DNA from: Chrysochromulina tobinii | Lineage: Eukaryota | Direction of reading: 5' to 3' | Assembly: GCA_001275005.1 (NCBI GenBank) | Contig: JWZX01002769.1 | Location: 1-51,570 of the forward strand | DNA length: 51,570 nt | Part shown: positions 6,516 through 51,448 of the stretch, in pieces | Position numbering within the stretch: the stretch's first letter is position 1 | How the letters are laid out: every line of letters begins with the position of its first letter | The notes under the pieces: generated by a model | Database searches by the model: none | What the model was told of the DNA's origin: nothing | The model's input: only the letters and a program-made list of their open reading frames with translations | Program-made: the position numbers and the translations under genes

Positions 6516-6584
6516 ATGCCTGAGAACTGGGCCGCGAGAAACTGCGTTTGAAGATGGAAGGCGCGAGCTGGACCTGTTCAATGG

Positions 6585-6617
6585 TCAAGTCAAGTCAAGT
6601 CAAGTCAAGTCAAGTCA
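6585..6617. repeat. (TCAAG)n pentamer array, about 6.6 units
   Basis: Read directly; lies about 70 bp upstream of the giant gene's ATG. Confidence 0.95.
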
Positions 6618-7175: not shown

Positions 7176-10100
7176 TTATTTCGGCGCGAGCCATCTCTCT
7201 TTTGCCTGCTGCACCAGCCGCAACCCTTTGAGCGCGACAAACTTTTCATGGTAGGCGCCAGACCAAATGGCGCGGTCGCCCATGGCCTCGAGGACGCTGT
7301 GGCAAAAGTCGCTCTTCGAGATCAGGCCATCGCCATCGCGGTCGAGGACGCGGAAGAAGCAGAGCATCTCGTCGGTGTCGTCGTTCTTCGCCTGAAGCAC
7401 GAGCCGCTCGTGCTTCCATTGTCGGCATGCGTCACGCCAGCGCGCCCACACGACTTGCTCGAGTCGCTCGAGAAAGTGGTGGAGCGCGAAGCGGTGCTTG
7501 GACAGCATGATCTTCTCGGCCTGCGCGAGCGCTTCGTCTGTCTCCTCGTCCTCAGTCTTCTCCCTGGCCATGCGCCACGCCTCGGTTGCCGCCTCCGCTT
7601 CTGCTCTCTCCTGGGCAAGTTTCGCCTCGGCCGCCGCCTCCGCGTCCGCCTTCAGCTTCTCGTCCGCAAGCCGAGGTGGCGCATCGCCAGAAGGCGAGAA
7701 GGGACAGGATCTCGCTGCCGCCTCCCGCGCCTCCGCCTTCGCCTCCGCCTTCTCCTTGGCGATGCGCTCGCGCTCGACGCGCTCGCGTTCCGCCTTCTCG
7801 GCGGCCTGCTTTTGCTGGTAATGGCTCAGTGCAAATGGGAACACAAGCTTGTGGTAGTAATAGTCGCCCGAGTTGCGCTCCTCCGCCGTCCAACGCCGCT
7901 CGTCAGACGACACTGGCGTCATGGCCTGGAGCGCTAGGTCGAACTGGCAGAAGCTCAGCTTGCCGCCATCCTGGTCGAGGGCGCTTCGGAACTTGAGGAA
8001 CTCGTCGGACGCTGTGGTCTTGTCGAGCGCCTTCTCGAGCAGGCTCACGTTGGCCTTCATCGCCGCAAGCAGCACTGCGACCTTGCGCTCCGCCACCGCC
8101 TTGGCCAGTGGGGAATCGTACGCGGGCCAAGCATGCCGGAGCATCGGCAGCGGGGGGGGCGGGGGTGGCGCCGGCCTTGGCGGCGGCCACGGCGACACTA
8201 CCCCCGGCGACGGCGCGCGCGCAGGCCTCGGGGCAACGAGCACCGCGTTAAGGATACGTTCGAGAGCATCGACATACGCTTGGATGGGTGCGTGTATCGG
8301 AGGATGGGGTGCCTGGTTCGGCGTGGCGCGCCATGCCGCCTCGGCCTGTGCAGCGCCGAAGGCATGGGTGACGATGGCGTCCGTCATCTCAAACGTAACG
8401 TCCACGAACGAGTCGAGCGGGAGTTGGCCGTGCGCATTCACCTGCCCACAGCTGCGCAGGATGTGCCACAGCATGACGCCATCGTCCCAAGCACGCAAGC
8501 CCAACCCATAACGAGGCATCAGCGCCTTCGTTGCACCCGGGCTCCATCGGATGATCGGATCCGCGATCGAGATCGAAGCGGCGGCGGCTCTCTCCTCGTA
8601 GGAGGCGCTGTAGTCCGCCCCGGCGCCGCCGGCGCCGCCCACGTCGGCGCCGCCCATGTCCTCGGCAGCGCGGTCGGCGCTCCGGCGCTCCGGCCAATGA
8701 CCATCGAGATACCTCACATAGCGCGGCGGCGCAAAGCAAAAGGGGAAGGTCGCCATACTCTCACCGACGGCCGTCGCATTCAAGACGTTCTCGCGCACAA
8801 GGCTCAGGTACAAATCGAGGAACGAGGCCCTTTGCAGGGAGCCCGCGATCGCATTTCGCAACGGGCGCCGTGCCGCACTGCCACCCCGGAGGCCGTCGTG
8901 GTTGCACGACGAGCGGCGCCCTCCGGCGTCGCCGCCTTCGCTTCCAGCAGCAGCTACTCTGCGTGCAACGGCTCCAGCTGCCCCACTGTCGGCACTGTCC
9001 CCCTTAGTTGCCTGTGCACTCTCGGCACCCATCTCGGGGTAGCAACGTGTTCGGCAGGTCGCCTCGTATAGTTGGCGGGCGTGGCGCTGGATGAGGTCAC
9101 AATTGCGATACGCTTCGAGCCTCGACCGACGGTGGACCGCACAGCGCTCGTACCTGATGAGGGAGGCCATCAGTCGCAATCAGTGAATGTCGACACGAAA
9201 ACCATGCAATCATCGGCGGCGTGGATCGCGCAGAGCTCGTACAACTTGGGGTTCGGGTGAGGGTAAGGGTTTTGGGCGCTCCGTACTCTTTGCGGTTCGC
9301 GCGGATCGTCTTCTCGCAGTCGGCGATGAGGTTATCGCACCCGGCGGTCCGATTGAGCGCCTTGGTGGACTTTGCCTTCGCAACCACGTCATCGAGGGGA
9401 TTCTCGCTCATCACGGGCTGTGCCGTGAGCCGCATCAGCACATTGTCTTCGTGCCTTAGCTGCGTGTGCTCTGAACCTGTCTCGACCTCCAGCACGGGCA
9501 CGCTCGTGGCAGCCGGCGGGTGGGCGGAACCCAAAGCCGGAGCAGAGGCCGGATTGGAGTATGGAGACTGGGCGGCGGCGGCGGCCGGGGTCTGAGTCTG
9601 CGTGGGCGAGCGAGCGGCGGGCGGGCGAGCGGCGGGCTCGAAAGAGAATGCAGGCTCCTCGCGCATCAACACGCCGCGACCGCGTATGTAGTCCACATGG
9701 GCCTCGCTTGATGCGGCTAGATGCACATCGGTGCGGCAGCGCGGGGTGCTCTGTCGAAGCTGTGGACCCGCCCACCACAGCGCATCTGACGGCGAGCCAG
9801 GTGGCAGACCCCTTGGTGGGGTACGATGGCGCGGTGGGGTCTCTCGAAGGTCACTCAGCGCAGCAGCGTAGACGCTCACAGGCAAGAAGCGGCCACTCCT
9901 TGGGGAGAGGTCCTCGCGCTCAAACCAGTCGGCACGCGGAGAACCGCGGTTGCGAGGCGAGTGAAAGCCCGCCGGGCCACAGGACGCGTGGCGCACGAGC
10001 TGTGGAGATGGGCTTGCGGCTGGCACATCCGGAGGGCTCGCGGCTCGCACTCGTCCCTTCCGAATCATCGCCTCCTGTGGAGATGGGGAGCGGGTCATGG

Positions 10101-13819: not shown

Positions 13820-13880
13820 TTGCTGGGAGTCAAGTCAAGTCTTGACTTGACTTGACTTGACTTGACTTGACTTGCTGGGA
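13820..13880. mobile_element. (TCAAG)n/(TTGAC)n insertion with an internal inversion, flanked by the 9-bp direct repeat TTGCTGGGA
   Basis: TTGCTGGGA (13820-13828), GTCAAGTCAAGTC, (TTGAC)6, TTGCTGGGA (13872-13880). Confidence 0.7.
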
Positions 13881-13905
13881 ATTGCTGACCTTTTTGCGGT
13901 CGATA

Positions 13906-22595: not shown

Positions 22596-24016
22596 ATGTC
22601 CGATTCGCTACGGTCAGTTTGGACACTGACATTGATATCCCTCACATGCGCACCCCACCCGCCCGCATCGCCGCCGCAGCACCCGCCGCTTGACCCGCCA
22701 CCATTACCGCCGTCCGAACTTCCACCTCTGGAATCCTCTGAGTTCGATCGCCATTTGCGTCATGTGCACCCGCCGGCGCCATCGCCTCCGTGGGCAGCTT
22801 CAGATGTTGGCCGCCGAGAAGAAGGCCGAGGCGTACTCTTGCAGAGCAAGCTCGCCGAATTCTTGCGAGAGAAGTGCGAAGTGCTTCACGGGGGCAACAA
22901 ATTCGCCATGCGTACCGCGCTGAGTGAGATCGCATTGCTGGCACTCGAATCGACCATTTCGACAGGCAGCCGGACGTCGTGGCTCAGCTCTGTCCATCCA
23001 GTCGCGTTCCGCAAGGCGTGCGTTGCGGGTGCTGCGCGCTCGGCCAACGGTCGTGGCTCAGCGGTGGAAGCGATTGCTGCGCTTGTGTCCGCAGACGATG
23101 CTGAGAGTGATGCCGAGACTACCGTCCTTGCACTGCAGGCACTCGAAGCCATCGCTATTGACGAGCCGACTACGGATGTGGACAATGACCATGCATTGGC
23201 CATCTGCGCAACTGGCGTGGTACAACACGTCGTTCGGCTCCTCTCATCTTCAGATGCAGCGCTGCACACACGCGCTGCCGCGGCGGCCGCGGCGCTCGTG
23301 GAGAATGCCTACGCCGCACGCATGTTCCTTGGGGCGGGCGTCGTGAGCCCACTACTTGTGCTCGTACGCCACGGCGGCGATGAGGCGCGCCAGGCGGCCA
23401 TGAGTGCGCTACGTATGCTGTCCATCGACCGCGACGCGCGTCAAGCCATCGCCGGCAAGGCCATGGACTTGCTGGGCAGGGTTCTCGAGGTGGATCCATT
23501 CGCGCGAGAGGCGGCCGCGGAGCTGATTGCATGCTGATCGCAACTGATTGCCACCCTCATCAGGTGGATCCATTCGCGCGAGAGGCGGCCGCGGAGCTGC
23601 GAGCGACGCTCGAGGAGCCGCTAGGGGCTGCGGTGGACTCCAAGGGGCACGCCCGCCTCGCGCGCGATTCGCGCGTCTCGCAAAGTAAGCTGTGGGCAAA
23701 GGCGCAGCGCAACCCGCAACCCGAGAGGCAGCGCGCAGGCGCTCGCTTTCGCCAAGGCTCCCGTGTCCTCTGCAACATGGGCAATGGCATTGCCAAGGCA
23801 GGAGCAGTCGTCGCGCTTGATGTCATCGAGGATGGTCAGTCGTACAAGTACAAGGTGGCTCTCGACGATGGGACAGGAGCCCTCGTTCCCCAAGACACGG
23901 ACCAGTTCGTTCGGCCCGAGAAGAGCATGCACGTGCCGCCGCGGGGACATAACCAGGCGGCGACAGCCGGCCTCGACGCATCGCGGCTGCTGTCGCAGCG
24001 GCAGATTCCCCTTTAA
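22596..24016 (+). CDS. Armadillo-repeat protein with a small C-terminal beta domain; exons 22596-23489 and 23564-24016 (start uncertain)
   Basis: ARM-like GVVQHVVRLLSSSD and AGVVSPLLVLVRHGGDEARQAAMSAL; ORFs 22596-23537 and 23531-24016 join in frame via a 74-nt intron. Confidence 0.7.
23490..23563 (+). other. Predicted 74-nt GT-AG intron whose first 36 nt exactly duplicate the downstream exon
   Basis: 23490-23525 is identical to 23564-23599; the remainder is ATTGCATGCTGATCGCAACTGATTGCCACCCTCATCAG; phase 0, restores the frame. Confidence 0.85.
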
Positions 24017-29567: not shown

Positions 29568-29652
29568 TGTGCGCCCGTGTGTCCCGTGTGTGTCCCGGCT
29601 CCCCCCGGTGTCTTTTAACACCTTGTCCCGGCTTTCCCCCCGGGTCTTTCTA
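29568..29652 (+). mobile_element. 3'-end copy of the dispersed SINE-like repeat, plus an adjacent degenerate second 3' end
   Basis: gtgtcccgtgtgtgtcccggctccccccggtgtctttta, as at 38312-38349, followed by gtcccggctttccccccgggtcttt; TACCGGTA at 29361. Confidence 0.65.
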
Positions 29653-29744: not shown

Positions 29745-31735
29745 ATGGCGACGCCGGAGCTTCTGAAGGTCCCGGCGACGTTGTCCAATGTCGACCCCAA
29801 CATCAGCTGCTTGAGGTTCACCGTGTCCGAAATTCTGCCATGCGTTCCGCTGCCGCCTCGTGCCATGTGGCCTCCGTATGGCTTCGATGCCGAGCGCGAT
29901 TCTGAGCTGAGGGCAGCCGCAGCCCTAGAGGCACGCCTGGAACAGGATGCTGCCGAGGCGGTCATGCGCGCGGAGCGAGACGAAAAGCGACGGCAGAAGG
30001 AGGAGGAGGAGGCGGCTCGAGCAGCTGAGCTCTTGGCCGCGGCTCAAGCAGAGCTAGCGTCTCGGCAGCGTGAGATGCAGAAACCGAAGCTGTGGACGGC
30101 CGCGAATGCGGAGCCGTCGGTAGCACCCACGCCGATGGCCAATAAGGCACTGGCGGCGAAGGCCGTGACGCCCGAAAAGACAGGCAGCAACGGCAGCAAG
30201 GGAGGCAACAGCAGCAGTGGTGGTGGCGGCAGAAGTAGCCCACCACCGACCGGCGATGACAGCAGCTTTCATGACAGCAGCAGCAGTGGATCGGCGGCGG
30301 CGGCGAGCCCGACGTCGGCCATCTCGGCGTTTTTGGCGCATTTCGGCTGGACCGGCCGAGCGGCGAGCGGTAAGTCCGGCCGAGAGCAGGGCCGAGAGCA
30401 GGCGTTGGTGAACTCGCTCGAGGCGCTTCTGGCACGAGAGGAGGCGGAGGCGGCGGCGGAGCGTGGCGCACCCGAGGAGTATGATGCGCGCGTCGAGCAG
30501 GAGGAGCTCGCGTGGAGAGAGAGAGAGAGCAAGGCCGTCGCCAAGGCTGCCGAGCGCCGCCGCGCTGCCGAGAAGGCGGCGGCCGACAAGGCGGCGGCAG
30601 AGCGGGCAGAGAAGAACAGGATTCAGGCGGCGGCCGAGGCGGCGGTTAGGGTGAAGGCGGCGGAGGCGGAGGCGGCGAAGCGCAAGCTTGAGGAAGAAAC
30701 GGCCGCGGCCGCTACGGCCAAAATGTGGGCCGATAAAGCGGCCGCGGAAACGGAGGCAAAGGCGAAGGCGAAGGCTGAGGCGCTTGCGCTCGCACACGCG
30801 GCCGCAGCGAAGCAGAAGGAAGCGGATGCGAAGGCAGCGGCGGAGGCGGCAGAGCGGAGGGAGAAGCTGAAGGCCGAGGCGCTCGCCATGGCGCTGGCGG
30901 CGGCGGAGAAGAGGAAGGCGGAGGAGGAGAAGGCGGCGGCGGAGGCAGCCGAGAAGGCGCGTCTCGACCTCTGATGACCTCTGATGATCTCTGATGACCA
31001 CTGATGACCCATAATTGCCTCCCTCATCAGGCGCGTCTCGAAGCGGAACGCCTGGCGAAGGAGAAGGCTGAGGCCGATAGAGTCGCCGCTGAGAACGCGA
31101 AGAGAGCCGCCGAGAAGGCGGAGGCGGAGCGGAGGGAGGCCAACAGGCTGGCAGCGATCCGAGCCGAGGCGGAGCGAATCGCTGCCGAGGAGGCGGAGGC
31201 CAAGCGGGTCGAGCAGGCGCGACTGGCAGCCGAGGAGGCGGCGGCCGAGGCGGAGAGGCTCGCAGCAGAGGCAGCCGAAGCGGCCCGTCTGGAGGCCGAG
31301 AGGCTCGAGCAGGAGCGAATCAAGGCCGAGGCGGTTGCGGCCGAAGCGGCACGTCTGGAGGCCGAGAGGCGCGAGAAGGAGCGTCTCGCTGCCGAGAGGG
31401 CCGCGGCGATGGCGGCCAAGATCGAGGCAGCGGCGATGGCAGCACGGCTGAGGGCTGAGGCAGAGTCCTCTTTCGATTCTTCGGCCAAGGATGCCTCAGC
31501 GCCTAGCATGGCGTCCATCATGGCGCCTGGATGGGCGAGGGAGGTCGACCGTTGGAGTGACCGCACAGCCACCAGCAAGCGCGACTCCCTCGCAGGAAGC
31601 ATCTCGAGGCGAAGGATGGAGCGCTCGGCGAGGCGCGCTGGCGTGGGCACGGTGACCCCTTCGAGGACGCCCACGCCAAATAGTTCTGATCAGATGCGGG
31701 CTCGCGCAGATTCGGCAGATTCGGGGGAAACGTAG
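29745..31735 (+). CDS. Hypothetical Ala/Glu/Lys/Arg-rich coiled-coil protein; exons 29745-30956 and 31031-31735
   Basis: ORFs 29700-30974 and 31004-31735 join in frame (...[13 protein letters not shown]...). Confidence 0.7.
30957..31030 (+). other. Predicted 74-nt GC-AG intron of the exon-duplication type
   Basis: AAG|GCGCGTCTCGA (equals exon 31031-31041), then four CTGATGAY 10-mer units and CCTCCCTCATCAG; phase 0. Confidence 0.8.
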
Positions 31736-32098
31736 CGCGACTTAGATACCGCTCCCCTGGATGTGTTACTATAGAGGCGACCTCCCGCGCCACACCGGTC
31801 ACCGCCTTGTCACCGCCGCGCGCGCCGGTAGCGGTACCGAGGACCGAACCACACTCCACAGTGCACAGAGCGTCTGAGCCGCGCACAGACGCTGTTATCT
31901 GTGGTGTTGCTCAGAGATGACAATCGACATGCGATTAACATACGATGTCATGCCGCATTTCGTACGGTTCATGATCCATTCGTATCCTCGGCAGGTCAGA
32001 CCCTCAACTCTCAGAATGTCCCTGGCCCTCTTGCTACCTTCGACGTTTCTTTCATGTTTGTTCGTGTTCGAACGCAATCAACGCAATCAACGGTTCAC

Positions 32099-34714
32099 AT
32101 GAGGCGAGTCGTCCTTGGAGTCTCCTCTCGCAACGCCACTGCATCTCCACGAGGCCTCAGTAGAGCGTTCACCTCCGCTGAATGTCGGCGAGGGTTCAGT
32201 GGAACGCCTCTCAACTCGACCGAGTATCGCACGCAAGTACTGGAGTTGACACTTGGCATCATCAAGGCGGCTGGCCGTCCTTTTCGACGGCGTCAAGCAT
32301 TTCGAAGGGGCGAAGTGCTCAAAGATCTTGCAGATCTCGATTCCGACTTGCAACGAGCTACCATGCTTTTTGACAACGGCACACGCAGTGGGTTTGAGCT
32401 CCACGACCGGCAGACAGTCTCGATGCTTGCACGCGCATACTGTGTGCCGCATGCGGTGTGGGAACGTCGCGAGCTGCCTCGCGCATTGCAACTGTTTGAG
32501 ACGATGCTGCAGCAGCCCGCCGACGGAGTTCCGCTGAGCCACAGGTGGACATGCGAGGCAGTCAAGTGCGAGCTAGTGGCGCGTTACGGCGATGCAAACA
32601 GCGGAGTCGCACGAGCGTGCATCGAGCATCGGCAGCCACATGAGCAACGTGTCGACCTCAACACGGAGTCCGTGCTCGCCATCGCCGACAGCGCGGTGCA
32701 GGCGGCGGACGCCCCGTCGCACCTCGAGCGCGCCGTGCAGCTCTACTTGTACGTCGCGCACGCGGCTGTCCGCAGTGGCCAGGCCTTGGAGCACGGCGAT
32801 CTCGACGAGCAGCTCGGGGTTTATCTCGCGGCGCTCACGCGTCTCTTTGGTGCGTGCTCGGCCGCGCGGCAGCTGCCGCAGCACACGATGCTCCTGCTAC
32901 CGGCGCTTGTTGGCTCCACCGGCGCCGCGCCGGGCACTTCGAGTCTCGACGCCGTCGCGCACCGCGCCCAGGACGGCGCCGCCTCGAGCAGCGCTGCCGT
33001 GGGCGGCCTTGTGGACGCCGTCCTGGGCGCTACGGTCGACGAGCGCACCCGCCTAGTCCAGCGGCGACGCAGCGCGCTCAATGCTCTGATCCACGCGTGT
33101 GGCCGAGCCGGTGAGGTGGAGTCTGATTGCGTCTGATTGCATGCAAGTGCTCACCACGGCGCCATCCCATCTCCCCACAGGTGAGGTGGAGTCTGATTGC
33201 GTCTGATTGCATGCCAGTGCTCACCACGGCACCCTCTCCTCCCCACAGGTGAGGTGGAGGCGGCGTGGCATGCCCATCGGGCGGGGGTCACCGCGGGGCT
33301 ACCGGTCGATAAGTATACCGTGACGGCGCTGGTGGCGGCTACCGGTCGCACTCGGGACCGTGCGCGGATTCTGGCGGCGCTGGCAGTGGGGATAGACGCT
33401 CAGCTCCCGGTGCGCACCGATCCGTTTGTGATGACATCTGTACTCAAAGCCCTCATGCTTGCAGGGGAGCATGAGGCGGCGATCGATACGTATGAGCGCG
33501 CTCTCGTGGAGGGCATGCGCCCCACCCCGGCCGTGACGAATGCTCTCAGCCTCGTCTATGCCGGTGCGGGCGACATCGAGCGCGCGACGGCTCTCTTTGA
33601 GACAGCGCGCGAGCGCGGCGCGGCGGGCGGCGCGGCGAGCGGCGCCCAAGACAACGCGAGCGGTGCCCAAGACAACGCGAGCGGCGCCGAGGGTCCCGAT
33701 GGCGTTGCCTTGGGCGAGGCTGCGGATAGCGCCTTGTCGAGCACCGATCCGTCGCGCGGGCGCGACGCGGACACCGCCGTGTGCACGCTGCTCCACGCGT
33801 GCGTGCGCGCGGGCGCGCCCTCGCGAGCACTCGCCACGTACGAGATTCTCGCAGCGAGCGGTTACGTGCCCTCGGGGAGTAGTCCACATGCCGTGCTGCT
33901 GGCCGCGGCCGCGGATGCTGCCGCGGCAGACGGTGCGGCGCACTACGCCGAGGAGCGCCGCAGCGCGACCCTGTCGCTCCATCGCCTCTTTGACGAAGCG
34001 ATCGCATCCGGCGTGCCCGCCGACTCTCGACTTCTGAGCGCTCTCGTGGGCGCCTTTGCGCGCATCGGCGACATCCCGGCAGCGCTGCGGGCGGCACGGC
34101 GCGCCGATGAGCTCGGCGTGCGGCCCGACCTGCAGCTGTTGCGAGCGGTACTGCAGGCCTACCTGCGCGCGCCGTCGGCACAGCGCGATGCGCTGGACTG
34201 GGTTACCTGCGCGGCCGCAGCGCACAGCATCAGCTTGCGTGACGTGGTCGACCTCTTGGTACGTGCGTACCTTGGCAGCGCGACGCCCCGCACCTCCGCG
34301 AGCCCCCCGCAACGATCTCCCCTCGATCTCCCCTCATCGCCCCGGACCTCCGCGAGCCCCCCGAGCACGCCGCCCCCCGTCAGCCATCAGCCGTCGCCAA
34401 CGCACCTCGATGCTGCCCTTGAGCTCTTCGAGCGTTCACGGCGGCATGAGTGGCCACTGGCCGAGCAAACGTACCGGTCACTCCTCAGTGCTTGCTCGCG
34501 GCTCAACAGGCTTCCCGAGGCGATCGTGCTGCTAGAGCACATGGAGAACAAGGGGCACGCTCCCGGCCTCGCGGCACTCGACGACGTCATGCTCGCCAGC
34601 CATCGCGCAGGCGACATCGACGACCAGACTTTGGCACTCTGGTTGGCCGGCTCGGCCGAGGAAACTCAGCTCCTTCCCGAGGACCGCCGCGGTCGCTCTC
34701 ACAGTCGCAGCTAG
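32099..34714 (+). CDS. Pentatricopeptide-repeat (PPR) protein, probably organelle-targeted; exons 32099-33110 and 33249-34714
   Basis: PPR-like units ALNALIHACGRAGEVEAA, VTNALSLVYAGAGDIERATALFE and TYRSLLSACSRLNRLPEAIVLLEHM; Arg/Ser-rich N-terminus. Confidence 0.82.
33111..33248 (+). other. Two abutting near-identical GT-AG intron units (33111-33180, 70 nt; 33181-33248, 68 nt) with no exon between them
   Basis: GTGAGGTGGAG at 33111, 33181 and 33249; each unit has (GTCTGATTGC)2, ATGCMAGTGCTCACCACGGC and CTCCCCACAG; removing all 138 nt restores the frame. Confidence 0.85.
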
Positions 34715-35774: not shown

Positions 35775-35795
35775 TTCGGGCGCCTCGTGCCACAA

Positions 35796-35817
35796 AGTCA
35801 AGTCAAGTCAAGTCAAG
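35796..35817. repeat. (TCAAG)4 array just upstream of the pseudouridine synthase
   Basis: agtcaagtcaagtcaagtcaag read directly. Confidence 0.9.
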
Positions 35818-38220: not shown

Positions 38221-38359
38221 TACCGGTATTGTGTGTTGTTGGAACTGGGTTTGGATGGATGTGAGGTTCGTCTGTGTGGTCTGTGTGCCTTTGTGCGTCC
38301 GCGTGTCCCGTGTGTCCCGTGTGTGTCCCGGCTCCCCCCGGTGTCTTTTTACCGGTATT
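38221..38359 (+). mobile_element. SINE-like element (~119 bp) with the 10-bp target-site duplication TACCGGTATT
   Basis: TACCGGTATT at 38221-38230 and 38350-38359; the body aligns by eye with the reverse complement of 49445-49556. Confidence 0.8.
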
Positions 38360-49403: not shown

Positions 49404-49690
49404 TATGGTTTACCGGTACATTGTATTGACTTGACTTGACTTGTAAAAAGACACCGCGGGGGGAGCCGGGACTCACACGGGACACGCGGACGCACAAAGG
49501 AACACGGACCGCACAGACGAACCTCACAACCATCCAAACCCACCAACAACACACACCCCGCACGTCAGCGCGACGACCGAAGCCGCGGCCGACTCAACAG
49601 CCGCAGGCCCGGTGGGAGCCGACCGCACGCCGCGGCCGACTCAGAAGAGGCCGCCCCCAGCGAACCCGACCCTGCTATGGTTACCGGTAC
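49404..49690 (-). mobile_element. Longer SINE-like copy (~255 bp) with a (CAAGT)3 tail, flanked by the ~15-bp direct repeat TATGGTT(T)ACCGGTAC
   Basis: tatggtttaccggtac at 49404 and tatggttaccggtac at 49676; the 3' ~115 bp match 38231-38349. Confidence 0.75.
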
Positions 49691-49786
49691 CGGTAAAAAG
49701 ACACCGGTAGTCAAGTCAAGTCAAGTCAAGACACCAATCGCAAGACACACTGCACACACGGGACACACACGGGACACGTACCGGTA
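49688..49786 (-). mobile_element. Degenerate related repeat copy interrupted by (TCAAG)4 and bounded by TACCGGTA sites
   Basis: Reverse strand reads taccggta-cgtgtcccgtgtgtgtcccg...(TTGAC)n...ccggtgtcttttt-accggta; AAGACACC flanks the pentamer array. Confidence 0.6.
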
Positions 49787-49898: not shown

Positions 49899-51448
49899 TC
49901 AAAATGGTCTGTAGAAATAGCGACCGCCCTCACCTCCATCGAAGCAGTCCTTCATCGAGTGGCAGGAGCTCAGATTGGCTCGCGGGCTGCGGTCGAGGTG
50001 TTCAAGCGTGCCGCAGGGCAACTCCTCGCAGTACCGATTGTCCTCGCGCCGCCGGTGAAGCAGCCCATACACGCGCGGCACGGTGCGGTTGTGCGGCTCG
50101 ACCCACAGGCGTGGCACGCCCGCGGCGGTCCGTGTGGCATGCAGCCGATAGCGCAACGGCAGCAGGGCGTAGCCGAGGTTCCAGCGCCATTGCCGCTGTA
50201 GCGGCGCCTCGCACTCGCGCGGCGTATCCACCTGATGAGAAAAGGAAATCAGCGTGCAATCAGAATGTAATCAGAATGCAATCAGAATGCAATCAGAATG
50301 CAATCAAGAATGCAATCAGCGCCGCGCCGGCCACGCTCGCACTCGCACTGGCGCGGCGTCACCACCTTGCGCCGATGGCTCTGCTTGGGGCTCGGCTCGC
50401 AGGTACGGTGTGGGTGGAGGCACGAGGTGTGGAGGCGTGCGCCCACACGGCTCGAAGGCGGGTGGAATTTAGGCCACGGCAGGTGCAGCAGCGTGCTGAT
50501 GGCCGTCGAGACGCGCGGCTGATGTGGTGGCGAGCGCTGAGACTGTCGCCTGTGCTGTGGCAGCGGCTGCTGCGACGGTGGCGGCTGCTCCTGCCGCTGC
50601 TGCTGCGGCGGCGGCGGCGGCTCCTGCTGCGGCTGCTCCGGCTGCTGCTCTGGTGGCCAGCTCCCAGGCACCAGTGGCCGCGTCTCGAGGCATCGCGCCA
50701 CAAAGTATCCATGCTGCCCATCGCATGAGCCCGCGTACGTCCAGTTCGACGGGTCGAAGCCCAAGATGTACTGCCGAGGCAAATCACACGCTGCTGCATG
50801 CTGTGCAAGCGCGCGTGAGCGAATGTCGAGGCCGCCGCTTGCGAACGGCGCGAGCAGCGGCCAGCCGCCGACTGCTCGCTCGGCTTGTCGCGCACAGCTG
50901 GCCGGCGCAGGCGAGCTCAGGTGGTCGTCGATGTCGCCGCACCACTTGGCGCGCCCGTCGCTGTGGAAGATCGCCCACCCAAAGTGGCCGTACCACAGCC
51001 ACGGACTATGTGTGCGCGCACCGTCACGCTCACGCTCACGCCGAGCAAGCCGATGCGCGCCCATGAGCTCGGCGAGCACGCGTGAGTCGTGGATGATTGA
51101 GTCGTCCTCAATCTTGCCAATGAAGCGTGCATTTGGGAAGATTTGCAACGCTTGCCGGAACCACTCGGCCGTTTTACAAAAGCACGAGAATTGAAAGCCC
51201 ATGCGCAACTTGTCGCGATTCGCAGCTGTCGCGTTCTCGTAGAAGAAGTCGGTGCACGCCACCACCAGGAATCGTGGGTCAGCCGCGTGCTCCTGCCGAG
51301 TGGTCACATACCGCCACTCGATGCCCTGTGGCCGCGCGCTGCGCCGACGAAAGGGCGGGATCCATTTGGTGACGACCACGCCGAGCGCGAGCCATAATGT
51401 GTGGCTCGTAGCACGCGATGTGGATACGCCATCGGACGCGCTGTGCAT
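49899..51448 (-). CDS. GT31 (galactosyltransferase)-like protein; exons 51448-50366 and 50231-49899 (5' end uncertain)
   Basis: KTAEWFRQA...FIGKIEDDS (DxD-type) and PFASGGL; the two ORFs join in frame (HRRK|VDTPRECE). Confidence 0.55.
50232..50365 (-). other. Predicted 134-nt GT-AG intron of the exon-duplication type with (CTGATTGCATT)n
   Basis: The intron start matches the downstream exon start at 21/24; about 6 CTGATTGCA-type units; acceptor TTTTCTCATCAG; phase 0. Confidence 0.8.

Follow-up and report, generated by a model that had tools for sequence, protein, structure and literature searches.

A twin intron with a zero-length exon in a PPR-protein gene of Chrysochromulina tobinii and a candidate family of intron-making modules

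The window, i.e., the whole stretch of 51,570 nucleotides of Chrysochromulina tobinii DNA that was analyzed (contig JWZX01002769.1), carries on its forward strand a gene whose product is, by homology, a PPR protein. Exon 1 lies at 32099..33110 (start codon inferred, intron phase 1) and exon 2 at 33249..34714, up to the stop codon. The intervening 138 nt form a twin intron, comprising two complete GT...AG units that abut at CAG|GTGAG. Unit 1 (33111..33180, 70 nt) and unit 2 (33181..33248, 68 nt) lie on the forward strand, and the junction between them (33178..33185) constitutes a zero-length exon. An earlier sequence-only reading had described two complete, non-identical units joined in this manner, and this is borne out; the heads share the same 34 nt, beyond which there is a single A/C difference and then unlike pyrimidine tails. 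The span that it gave, 33111..33259, contains both units, but its end takes in a third copy of an 11-nt exon sequence, the twin itself ending at 33248.

The layout is repeat, module, repeat, module, repeat. A 12-nt repeat occurs at 33110..33121, where it gives the outer GT donor, at 33180..33191, where it gives the inner donor, and at 33248..33259, where it is the original exon sequence. The first 11 nt of exon 2 (33249-33259) are the first 11 nt of each unit, and the identity is 12 nt with the preceding G. Each unit contains two CTGATTGC-type repeats joined to a 3′ splice module of a first type. In unit 1 the two 10-nt copies lie at 33121..33140, a repeat also found in four other introns of the window, and the module of conserved core, pyrimidine tract and CAG lies at 33139..33180, with a putative branch A 28 nt before its end, at 33153. 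The module of unit 2 occupies 33209-33248, with a putative branch A at 33223. The branch motif is 26-28 nt from the AG in each case, and both units keep donor, branch motif and acceptor. The inner acceptor therefore has its own branch motif and pyrimidine tract and directly adjoins a donor (YAG|GT), as expected of a zero-length exon. A search of the twin region against Rfam gave five weak matches, all far under cut-off, and its folding was no better than that of shuffles (z -0.36). A hammerhead or a snoRNA box would be a conceivable reading of the CTGATGA repeat.

Removal of both units opens a frame of 825 aa in the window sequence, and stops remain in frame if just one of the two is removed, as had been proposed. 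A homologue matches PPR_2 across the twin junction, the fragment alone scoring below Pfam's cut-off, and the junction accordingly appears from the alignment to sit inside a PPR-like motif, again in agreement with the initial description. Homologues at 58% and 52% identity are uninterrupted across the twin site. This would fit gain of the intron after the split from those lineages, provided that the proteins derive from DNA contigs. The inner site is not conserved across the lineages compared, these two homologues having no interruption and one strain (P0006, see below) having a single unit. RNA contigs over the gene start at 32093-32103. Within exon 2 (33635-33688) there is a 21-nt coding repeat whose copy number differs among strain proteins.

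The removal of the twin was studied by aligning RNA contigs from four of six runs (X13-X16), assembled from 31-mers at a depth of 3-20. A polyA contig from X14, one of the four runs, skips exactly 138 nt with GT..AG ends, joining the outer exon ends; the skip could stem from an intronless allele. Contigs from X13 and X15 align up to 33248 and then have 13 and 12 unaligned letters, respectively; although the joint itself is not displayed, these ends fit the spliced form. X16 has no listed piece at the joint. The unit-2-first intermediate (a 68-nt skip, with nine diagnostic 31-mers) was absent from all four shallow contig sets, and the unit-1-first intermediate (a 70-nt skip) has zero diagnostic 31-mers and is hence invisible in these contigs. 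With such depth and few or no diagnostic 31-mers, the lack of a single-unit skip in the four runs says little.

The exons of X14 differ from the window at seven listed places. A further X14 contig of 100 nt (record 11) covers 33121-33220 with one difference and spans the inner junction. The tail-to-head junction is thus present in a second sample, where DNA, pre-mRNA or a circle are all compatible with it. A 70-nt cycle of unit 1 would differ from the genome within 33121-33220 at one place, 33215, and we infer that this is the contig's single difference. As proof of a circle of unit 1 the contig was rejected, because the same 31-mers come from unspliced RNA or DNA. Some RNA joints return into the module across 30-33 intervening letters; these were likewise rejected as proof of twins or circles, since a target copy of at least 31 nt would close a loop in the 31-mer graph. 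The spliced X14 contig also skips 70 nt at 32957-33026 in exon 1. This segment has GC..GG ends and a 4-nt repeat, its loss shifts the frame, and it folds as a long hairpin (z -2.9). Given the strong hairpin and the lack of splice ends this is likely a reverse-transcription jump, with a strain deletion as the alternative.

The design of the twin is not confined to this gene. A scan for acceptors with an upstream GT or GC copy of the exon start gave eight matches in the window, two of which are the twin, against 0, 0, 0, 0 and 1 in five shuffles. Two of the eight (22941-23138 and 15685-15572) were discarded, as removal shortens the frame. Four related introns of the same design are predicted, with a second type of module made of CTGATTGC-like repeats ending CATCAG. 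Two are on the forward strand, at 23490..23563 (74 nt, with a 36-nt exon copy) and at 30957..31030 (a GC-AG intron of 74 nt with an 11-nt copy, or 13 with AG). The other two are on the reverse strand, at 9154..9242 (89 nt, a degenerate 22-nt copy, with a weak gain of frame) and at 50232..50365 (134 nt, a degenerate 24-nt copy and a longer repeat array).

We then searched metagenome sequence with a 17-nt module motif, which matched at least 136 stretches, possibly from several strains or species. Among the matches listed there were 161 occurrences, from which we set aside 33 where our rule recognized no acceptor and 11 that were duplicates or without context, and retained 117. From these comparisons the twin units would belong to a large family, in which a copy of the exon start is followed by a branch/acceptor module of about 40-50 nt. 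The start of the downstream exon is copied upstream of the module in 82 of the 117 (among the matches listed), compared with 3 of 115 control stretches. For 85 acceptor-anchored copies among the matches listed, 69 start with GT and 10 with GC, and 79 of the 85 introns measure 64-95 nt, a range set in part by the search window. The exon copy is 8-44 nt long with a median of 23 and no single peak (in a stricter set of 78 from 99 among the matches listed); two values of 70 in the set of 78 are at the upper measuring limit and are likely twins. Terminal inverted repeats were not found, at most 6 of 10 end bases being complementary in 78 of 78 among the matches listed. Nor, among these matches, did we find a long flank common to different loci, a longer shared source or an autonomous element. 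Similarity does not reach both ends of the intron, as the 5′ part is a local exon copy and the shared consensus starts about 5 nt before the search motif.

Exons that follow a module begin with GT or GC in 92 of 117 cases among the matches listed, which means that a donor is re-created where the exons are joined. Where a gene has a further intron downstream, this donor could permit re-splicing and exon skipping. Four loci (L038, L051, L096 and L025) have compound introns, whose CTGATTGC-type array has a copy of the exon-intron junction on either side. GT is not the start of this copy, a hint that the donor is fixed by selection and not by targeting.

In intron gain by tandem genomic duplication the duplicated exon sequence supplies a splice site, and likewise in the module family. 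The family differs in that a foreign module between the copies supplies branch and acceptor. The mechanism is named in PMC8469720. The many dispersed, similar intron-forming copies (at least 136 stretches, with 117 unique copies with an acceptor among the matches listed) are what is expected of introners. As in the introners of Symbiodinium and Polarella (classes 4/5 and 6/8/10), which carry the acceptor and obtain the donor from target duplication, one splice site is on the element, a GT or GC donor lies at the 5′ end of the duplication, the mRNA is seamless and exons start with the donor dinucleotide (10.1101/2020.10.14.339549; PMC9860276). Those elements, however, have fixed duplications of 4 or 8 nt, with inverted repeats in Symbiodinium, whereas here the duplications are of 8-44 nt, inverted repeats are absent and the copies have only their 3′ half in common. 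The introners described in marine Chrysochromulina, probably of the same algal group, are also short and without inverted repeats, but their polarity is the opposite, in that the donor is on the element and the acceptor comes from a 4-bp duplication (PMC9860276).

The family acts like an introner family, yet lacks three defining features of the DNA-transposon type. Its variable target duplication, with one fixed and one ragged end, resembles that of non-LTR elements or SINEs; non-LTR introners make up about 5% of classified cases (PMC12130899). The supplement of that study gives zero introner families for Chrysochromulina tobinii. The published pipeline needs similarity near both intron ends, and would likely miss the module family; more generally, without similar ends and a fixed short duplication the family is likely to go unseen in published scans. 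We found no description of it in the literature searched on intron gain and introners, which was mostly outside subscription journals. Further background may be found in PMC11282704, PMC10228655, PMC4815162 and PMC4580454.

Twins like that of the PPR gene are a regular by-product of the family, a genome-wide context that had been missed in the sequence-only reading. Among the matches listed, 56 pairs of modules lie within 150 nt of each other. Ten are zero-exon twins, in eight loci; the first module lacks an acceptor in 25 pairs and the second in eight, seven pairs enclose an exon of 20-80 nt and six are ambiguous. Two more twins, at L066 and L117, were found by eye. L028 and L064, which agree at 812 of 817 flanking bases, have the intron doubled and single, respectively, though collapse by the assembler in L064 is possible. 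In both L028 and L085 the head of the second unit has the exon's variant base and continues like the first unit, which would be the mark expected of an exchange inside the repeat. At L095 and L117 unlike units are joined, and these look like re-insertions. Judged from the sequences, duplication and re-insertion thus both appear to occur in the family.

Higher-order arrangements were also observed. L061 (0-480) contains at least two full units of 84 nt and three of 86 nt in zero-exon stacks, with a 20-nt exon between; L092, identical to it at 257 of 275 positions, has one 84-nt unit and no 86-nt unit. Six loci (L084, L090, L094, L097, L046 and L006) have arrays of the module core, 45-60 nt, without an acceptor and joined via short shared ends. 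Evidently duplication out of splice register occurs too.

How did the twin arise, and how is it removed? The reading that we prefer, at a probability of about 0.55, is that the 138 nt are two tandem short introns, made by local duplication of a young 70-nt intron and removed in two steps at least part of the time. Initially a branch/acceptor module of about 40-50 nt would have been inserted with duplication of its exon target, the upstream copy giving the GT donor. The anatomy of copy and module is plainly visible; the insertion itself may have been templated and begun at a staggered nick, which fits the varying copy length and the missing inverted repeats. Our first guess would be target-primed reverse transcription of an intron-derived RNA, and our second templated break repair. 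Slippage or unequal exchange between the 12-nt repeats might then have produced a second unit in register, an event that necessarily creates AG|GT and an exon of zero length. The tails could afterwards have diverged, or been converted by other copies of the family.

The single-unit form required by this scheme has a counterpart. P0006, whose exon 2 is 96% identical, is a read-through in which exon 1 is followed by a lone 70-nt unit and then by exon 2; this unit has a tail of the unit 1 type together with the C of unit 2. The evidence is a single protein of a single contig, in which an identical twin might have been collapsed. P0002-P0005 are closer than P0006 and have a unit-2-type tail beside exon 2, where single and twin forms are indistinguishable. 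Both units of the twin have the same 11-nt copy and spacer, whereas in independent insertions of the family the length of the copy differs widely. Of 4186 random pairs of family tails, 33% are at least as alike as the tails of the twin; this unlikeness counts against a plain recent duplication, and conversion or exchange between two alleles must be added. The simplest order is a single 70-nt intron, in-register doubling and then a change of tail, and we consider that the twin quite probably arose by duplication. The sequence-only reading had left the choice between tandem duplication and re-insertion open; here the former is the better supported (by P0006, by L028 with L064 and by L028 with L085), and the latter is suggested by other loci of the family.

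On the re-insertion reading unit 1 would have entered later and independently, at the unit 2 donor, as a 34-nt target copy plus a module from another member of the family. It has the attraction that a single event accounts for the identical 34-nt heads, the consensus A of unit 1 and the unlike tails. The consensus base is A in 135, G in 3 and C in 0 of 138 copies among the matches listed (a count biased by the search pattern), a 34-nt copy falls within the family range, and L095 and L117 are examples of twins with unlike units. Re-insertion covers the window in one step, but leaves P0006 unexplained, because neither an older unit nor a collapsed twin yields a tail of unit 1 with the C of unit 2 without further change; we regard it as unlikely. 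It is more improbable by far that two alleles of one intron were placed in tandem by the assembler. A single-unit form and two types of tail do exist among strains, and 12 DNA runs, which may be the source of the window, contain all sampled words. Yet the shared flank is 12 nt, below the usual k and probably too short for a 31-mer assembler to chain alleles, and the X14 contig, from a run whose exons differ from those of the window, covers the tail-to-head junction. The collapse of alleles raised with the original description is thus not supported.

The position of the twin within a PPR motif, where any retained unit would truncate the protein, might suggest a selected device, such as regulated retention, an NMD switch or a small-RNA host, and a second strain may have the twin too. 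Set against this are the variation of copy number at other loci, the existence of the single-unit strain, and the Rfam and folding results given above, and such a role seems very doubtful indeed. As the mRNA is identical whichever path of removal is taken, the twin is likely neutral. The duplication reading, with the twin a neutral, in-register copy of a young intron, is the most likely.

On this duplication reading either unit could be excised first, the remainder being a normal single intron of family length; the net loss of 138 nt is what the X14 contig displays. At 68-70 nt the units compare with the 64-95 nt of 79 of 85 family introns among the matches listed, which is on the side of two steps. 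Alternatively, with the same origin, the 138 nt may leave in one piece, from outer donor to outer acceptor, the inner AG|GT being idle. The outer junction alone was seen in the RNA contigs, and conventional lariats outnumber recursive ones in human introns of less than 1,000 nt (PMC10156609). The window has its predicted 134-nt intron, and family introns of 133, 161 and 178 nt are predicted without an inner YAG|GY, three of the four tested; that of 156 nt has one. The 133-nt intron, at L019, has two modules and lies in a DEAH-helicase-like frame. Together with the 25 of 56 pairs (among the matches listed) in which the first module has no acceptor, these frames suggest that one-step removal seems possible, and a length of 138 nt would not force two steps. 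However, splicing would have to pass over an inner donor that is perfect (CAG|GTGAG) and an inner branch and acceptor that are complete, each unit already has the usual length, and the contig data are unable to reveal the unit-1-first intermediate. Removal in one piece only is in our view rather doubtful. We lean with some caution toward stepwise removal as a substantial share of the flux; recursive splicing of the twin is plausible, and it works like a candidate recursive site.

The sequence-only reading had placed recursive sites mainly in very long animal introns, and this view needs widening. The 336-nt intron of S. pombe SPNCRNA.445 has a documented zero-length exon (10.1101/226894), and recursive lariats are found in human introns of less than 1,000 nt, human recursive sites spanning a broad range of sizes (PMC10156609). 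As in SPNCRNA.445 and at animal recursive sites, the 3′ splice site of the twin stands directly against a 5′ splice site, with full removal in RNA. In those cases use of the inner site is proved by spliceosome or lariat data, whereas the twin is known from sequence and its outer junction. The S. pombe case is moreover conserved around a snoRNA (10.1101/226894), while here there are 138 nt, units that are copies of each other and a copy number that varies among strains. The twin also resembles fungal stwintrons, in which two short U2 introns make one intervening sequence and which form families of copies, but in stwintrons a splice signal of one intron is split by the other, the two steps are obligatory and ordered, and there are no site duplications (PMC8469720). 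The units of the twin are intact and abutting, with no splice signal split.

Because zero-length exons in short introns are already known, the twin alone is of modest significance, and the intron-making family is the more novel part. The interest of the twin lies in what it can tell of the birth of introns. Where one intron exists as single and doubled alleles, removal of 138 nt in one step and removal in stages can be compared directly. A broader reading, which we put forward tentatively and at somewhat below even odds, is of a genome-wide intron factory unlike the described introners. A module of about 45 nt, inserted together with an exon-target copy that is long and of variable length, would make introns with a locus-specific 5′ half and a donor ready after every acceptor; the repeats would double introns in register into zero-exon stacks of two or three, segregating among strains and ratcheted out unit by unit. 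If this is true, there is a natural allelic series of 0, 1, 2 and 3 units with which to test the birth and definition of short introns.

Other repeats were noted in the same sequences. Runs of a 5-nt repeat of the (GACTT)n type occur in the window at 13830-13885, 6584-6617, 35795-35817 and 49709-49730, and in L022 at 70-330; at 13841 and in L022 the run lies between short direct repeats, as though simple repeats too were inserted with a target duplication. A third dispersed repeat of 50-80 nt, GTGTGTCCC-rich and ending GGTGTCTTTT, is present in three copies that are up to 90% alike, at 38237-38314, 49474-49551 and 29568-29616.
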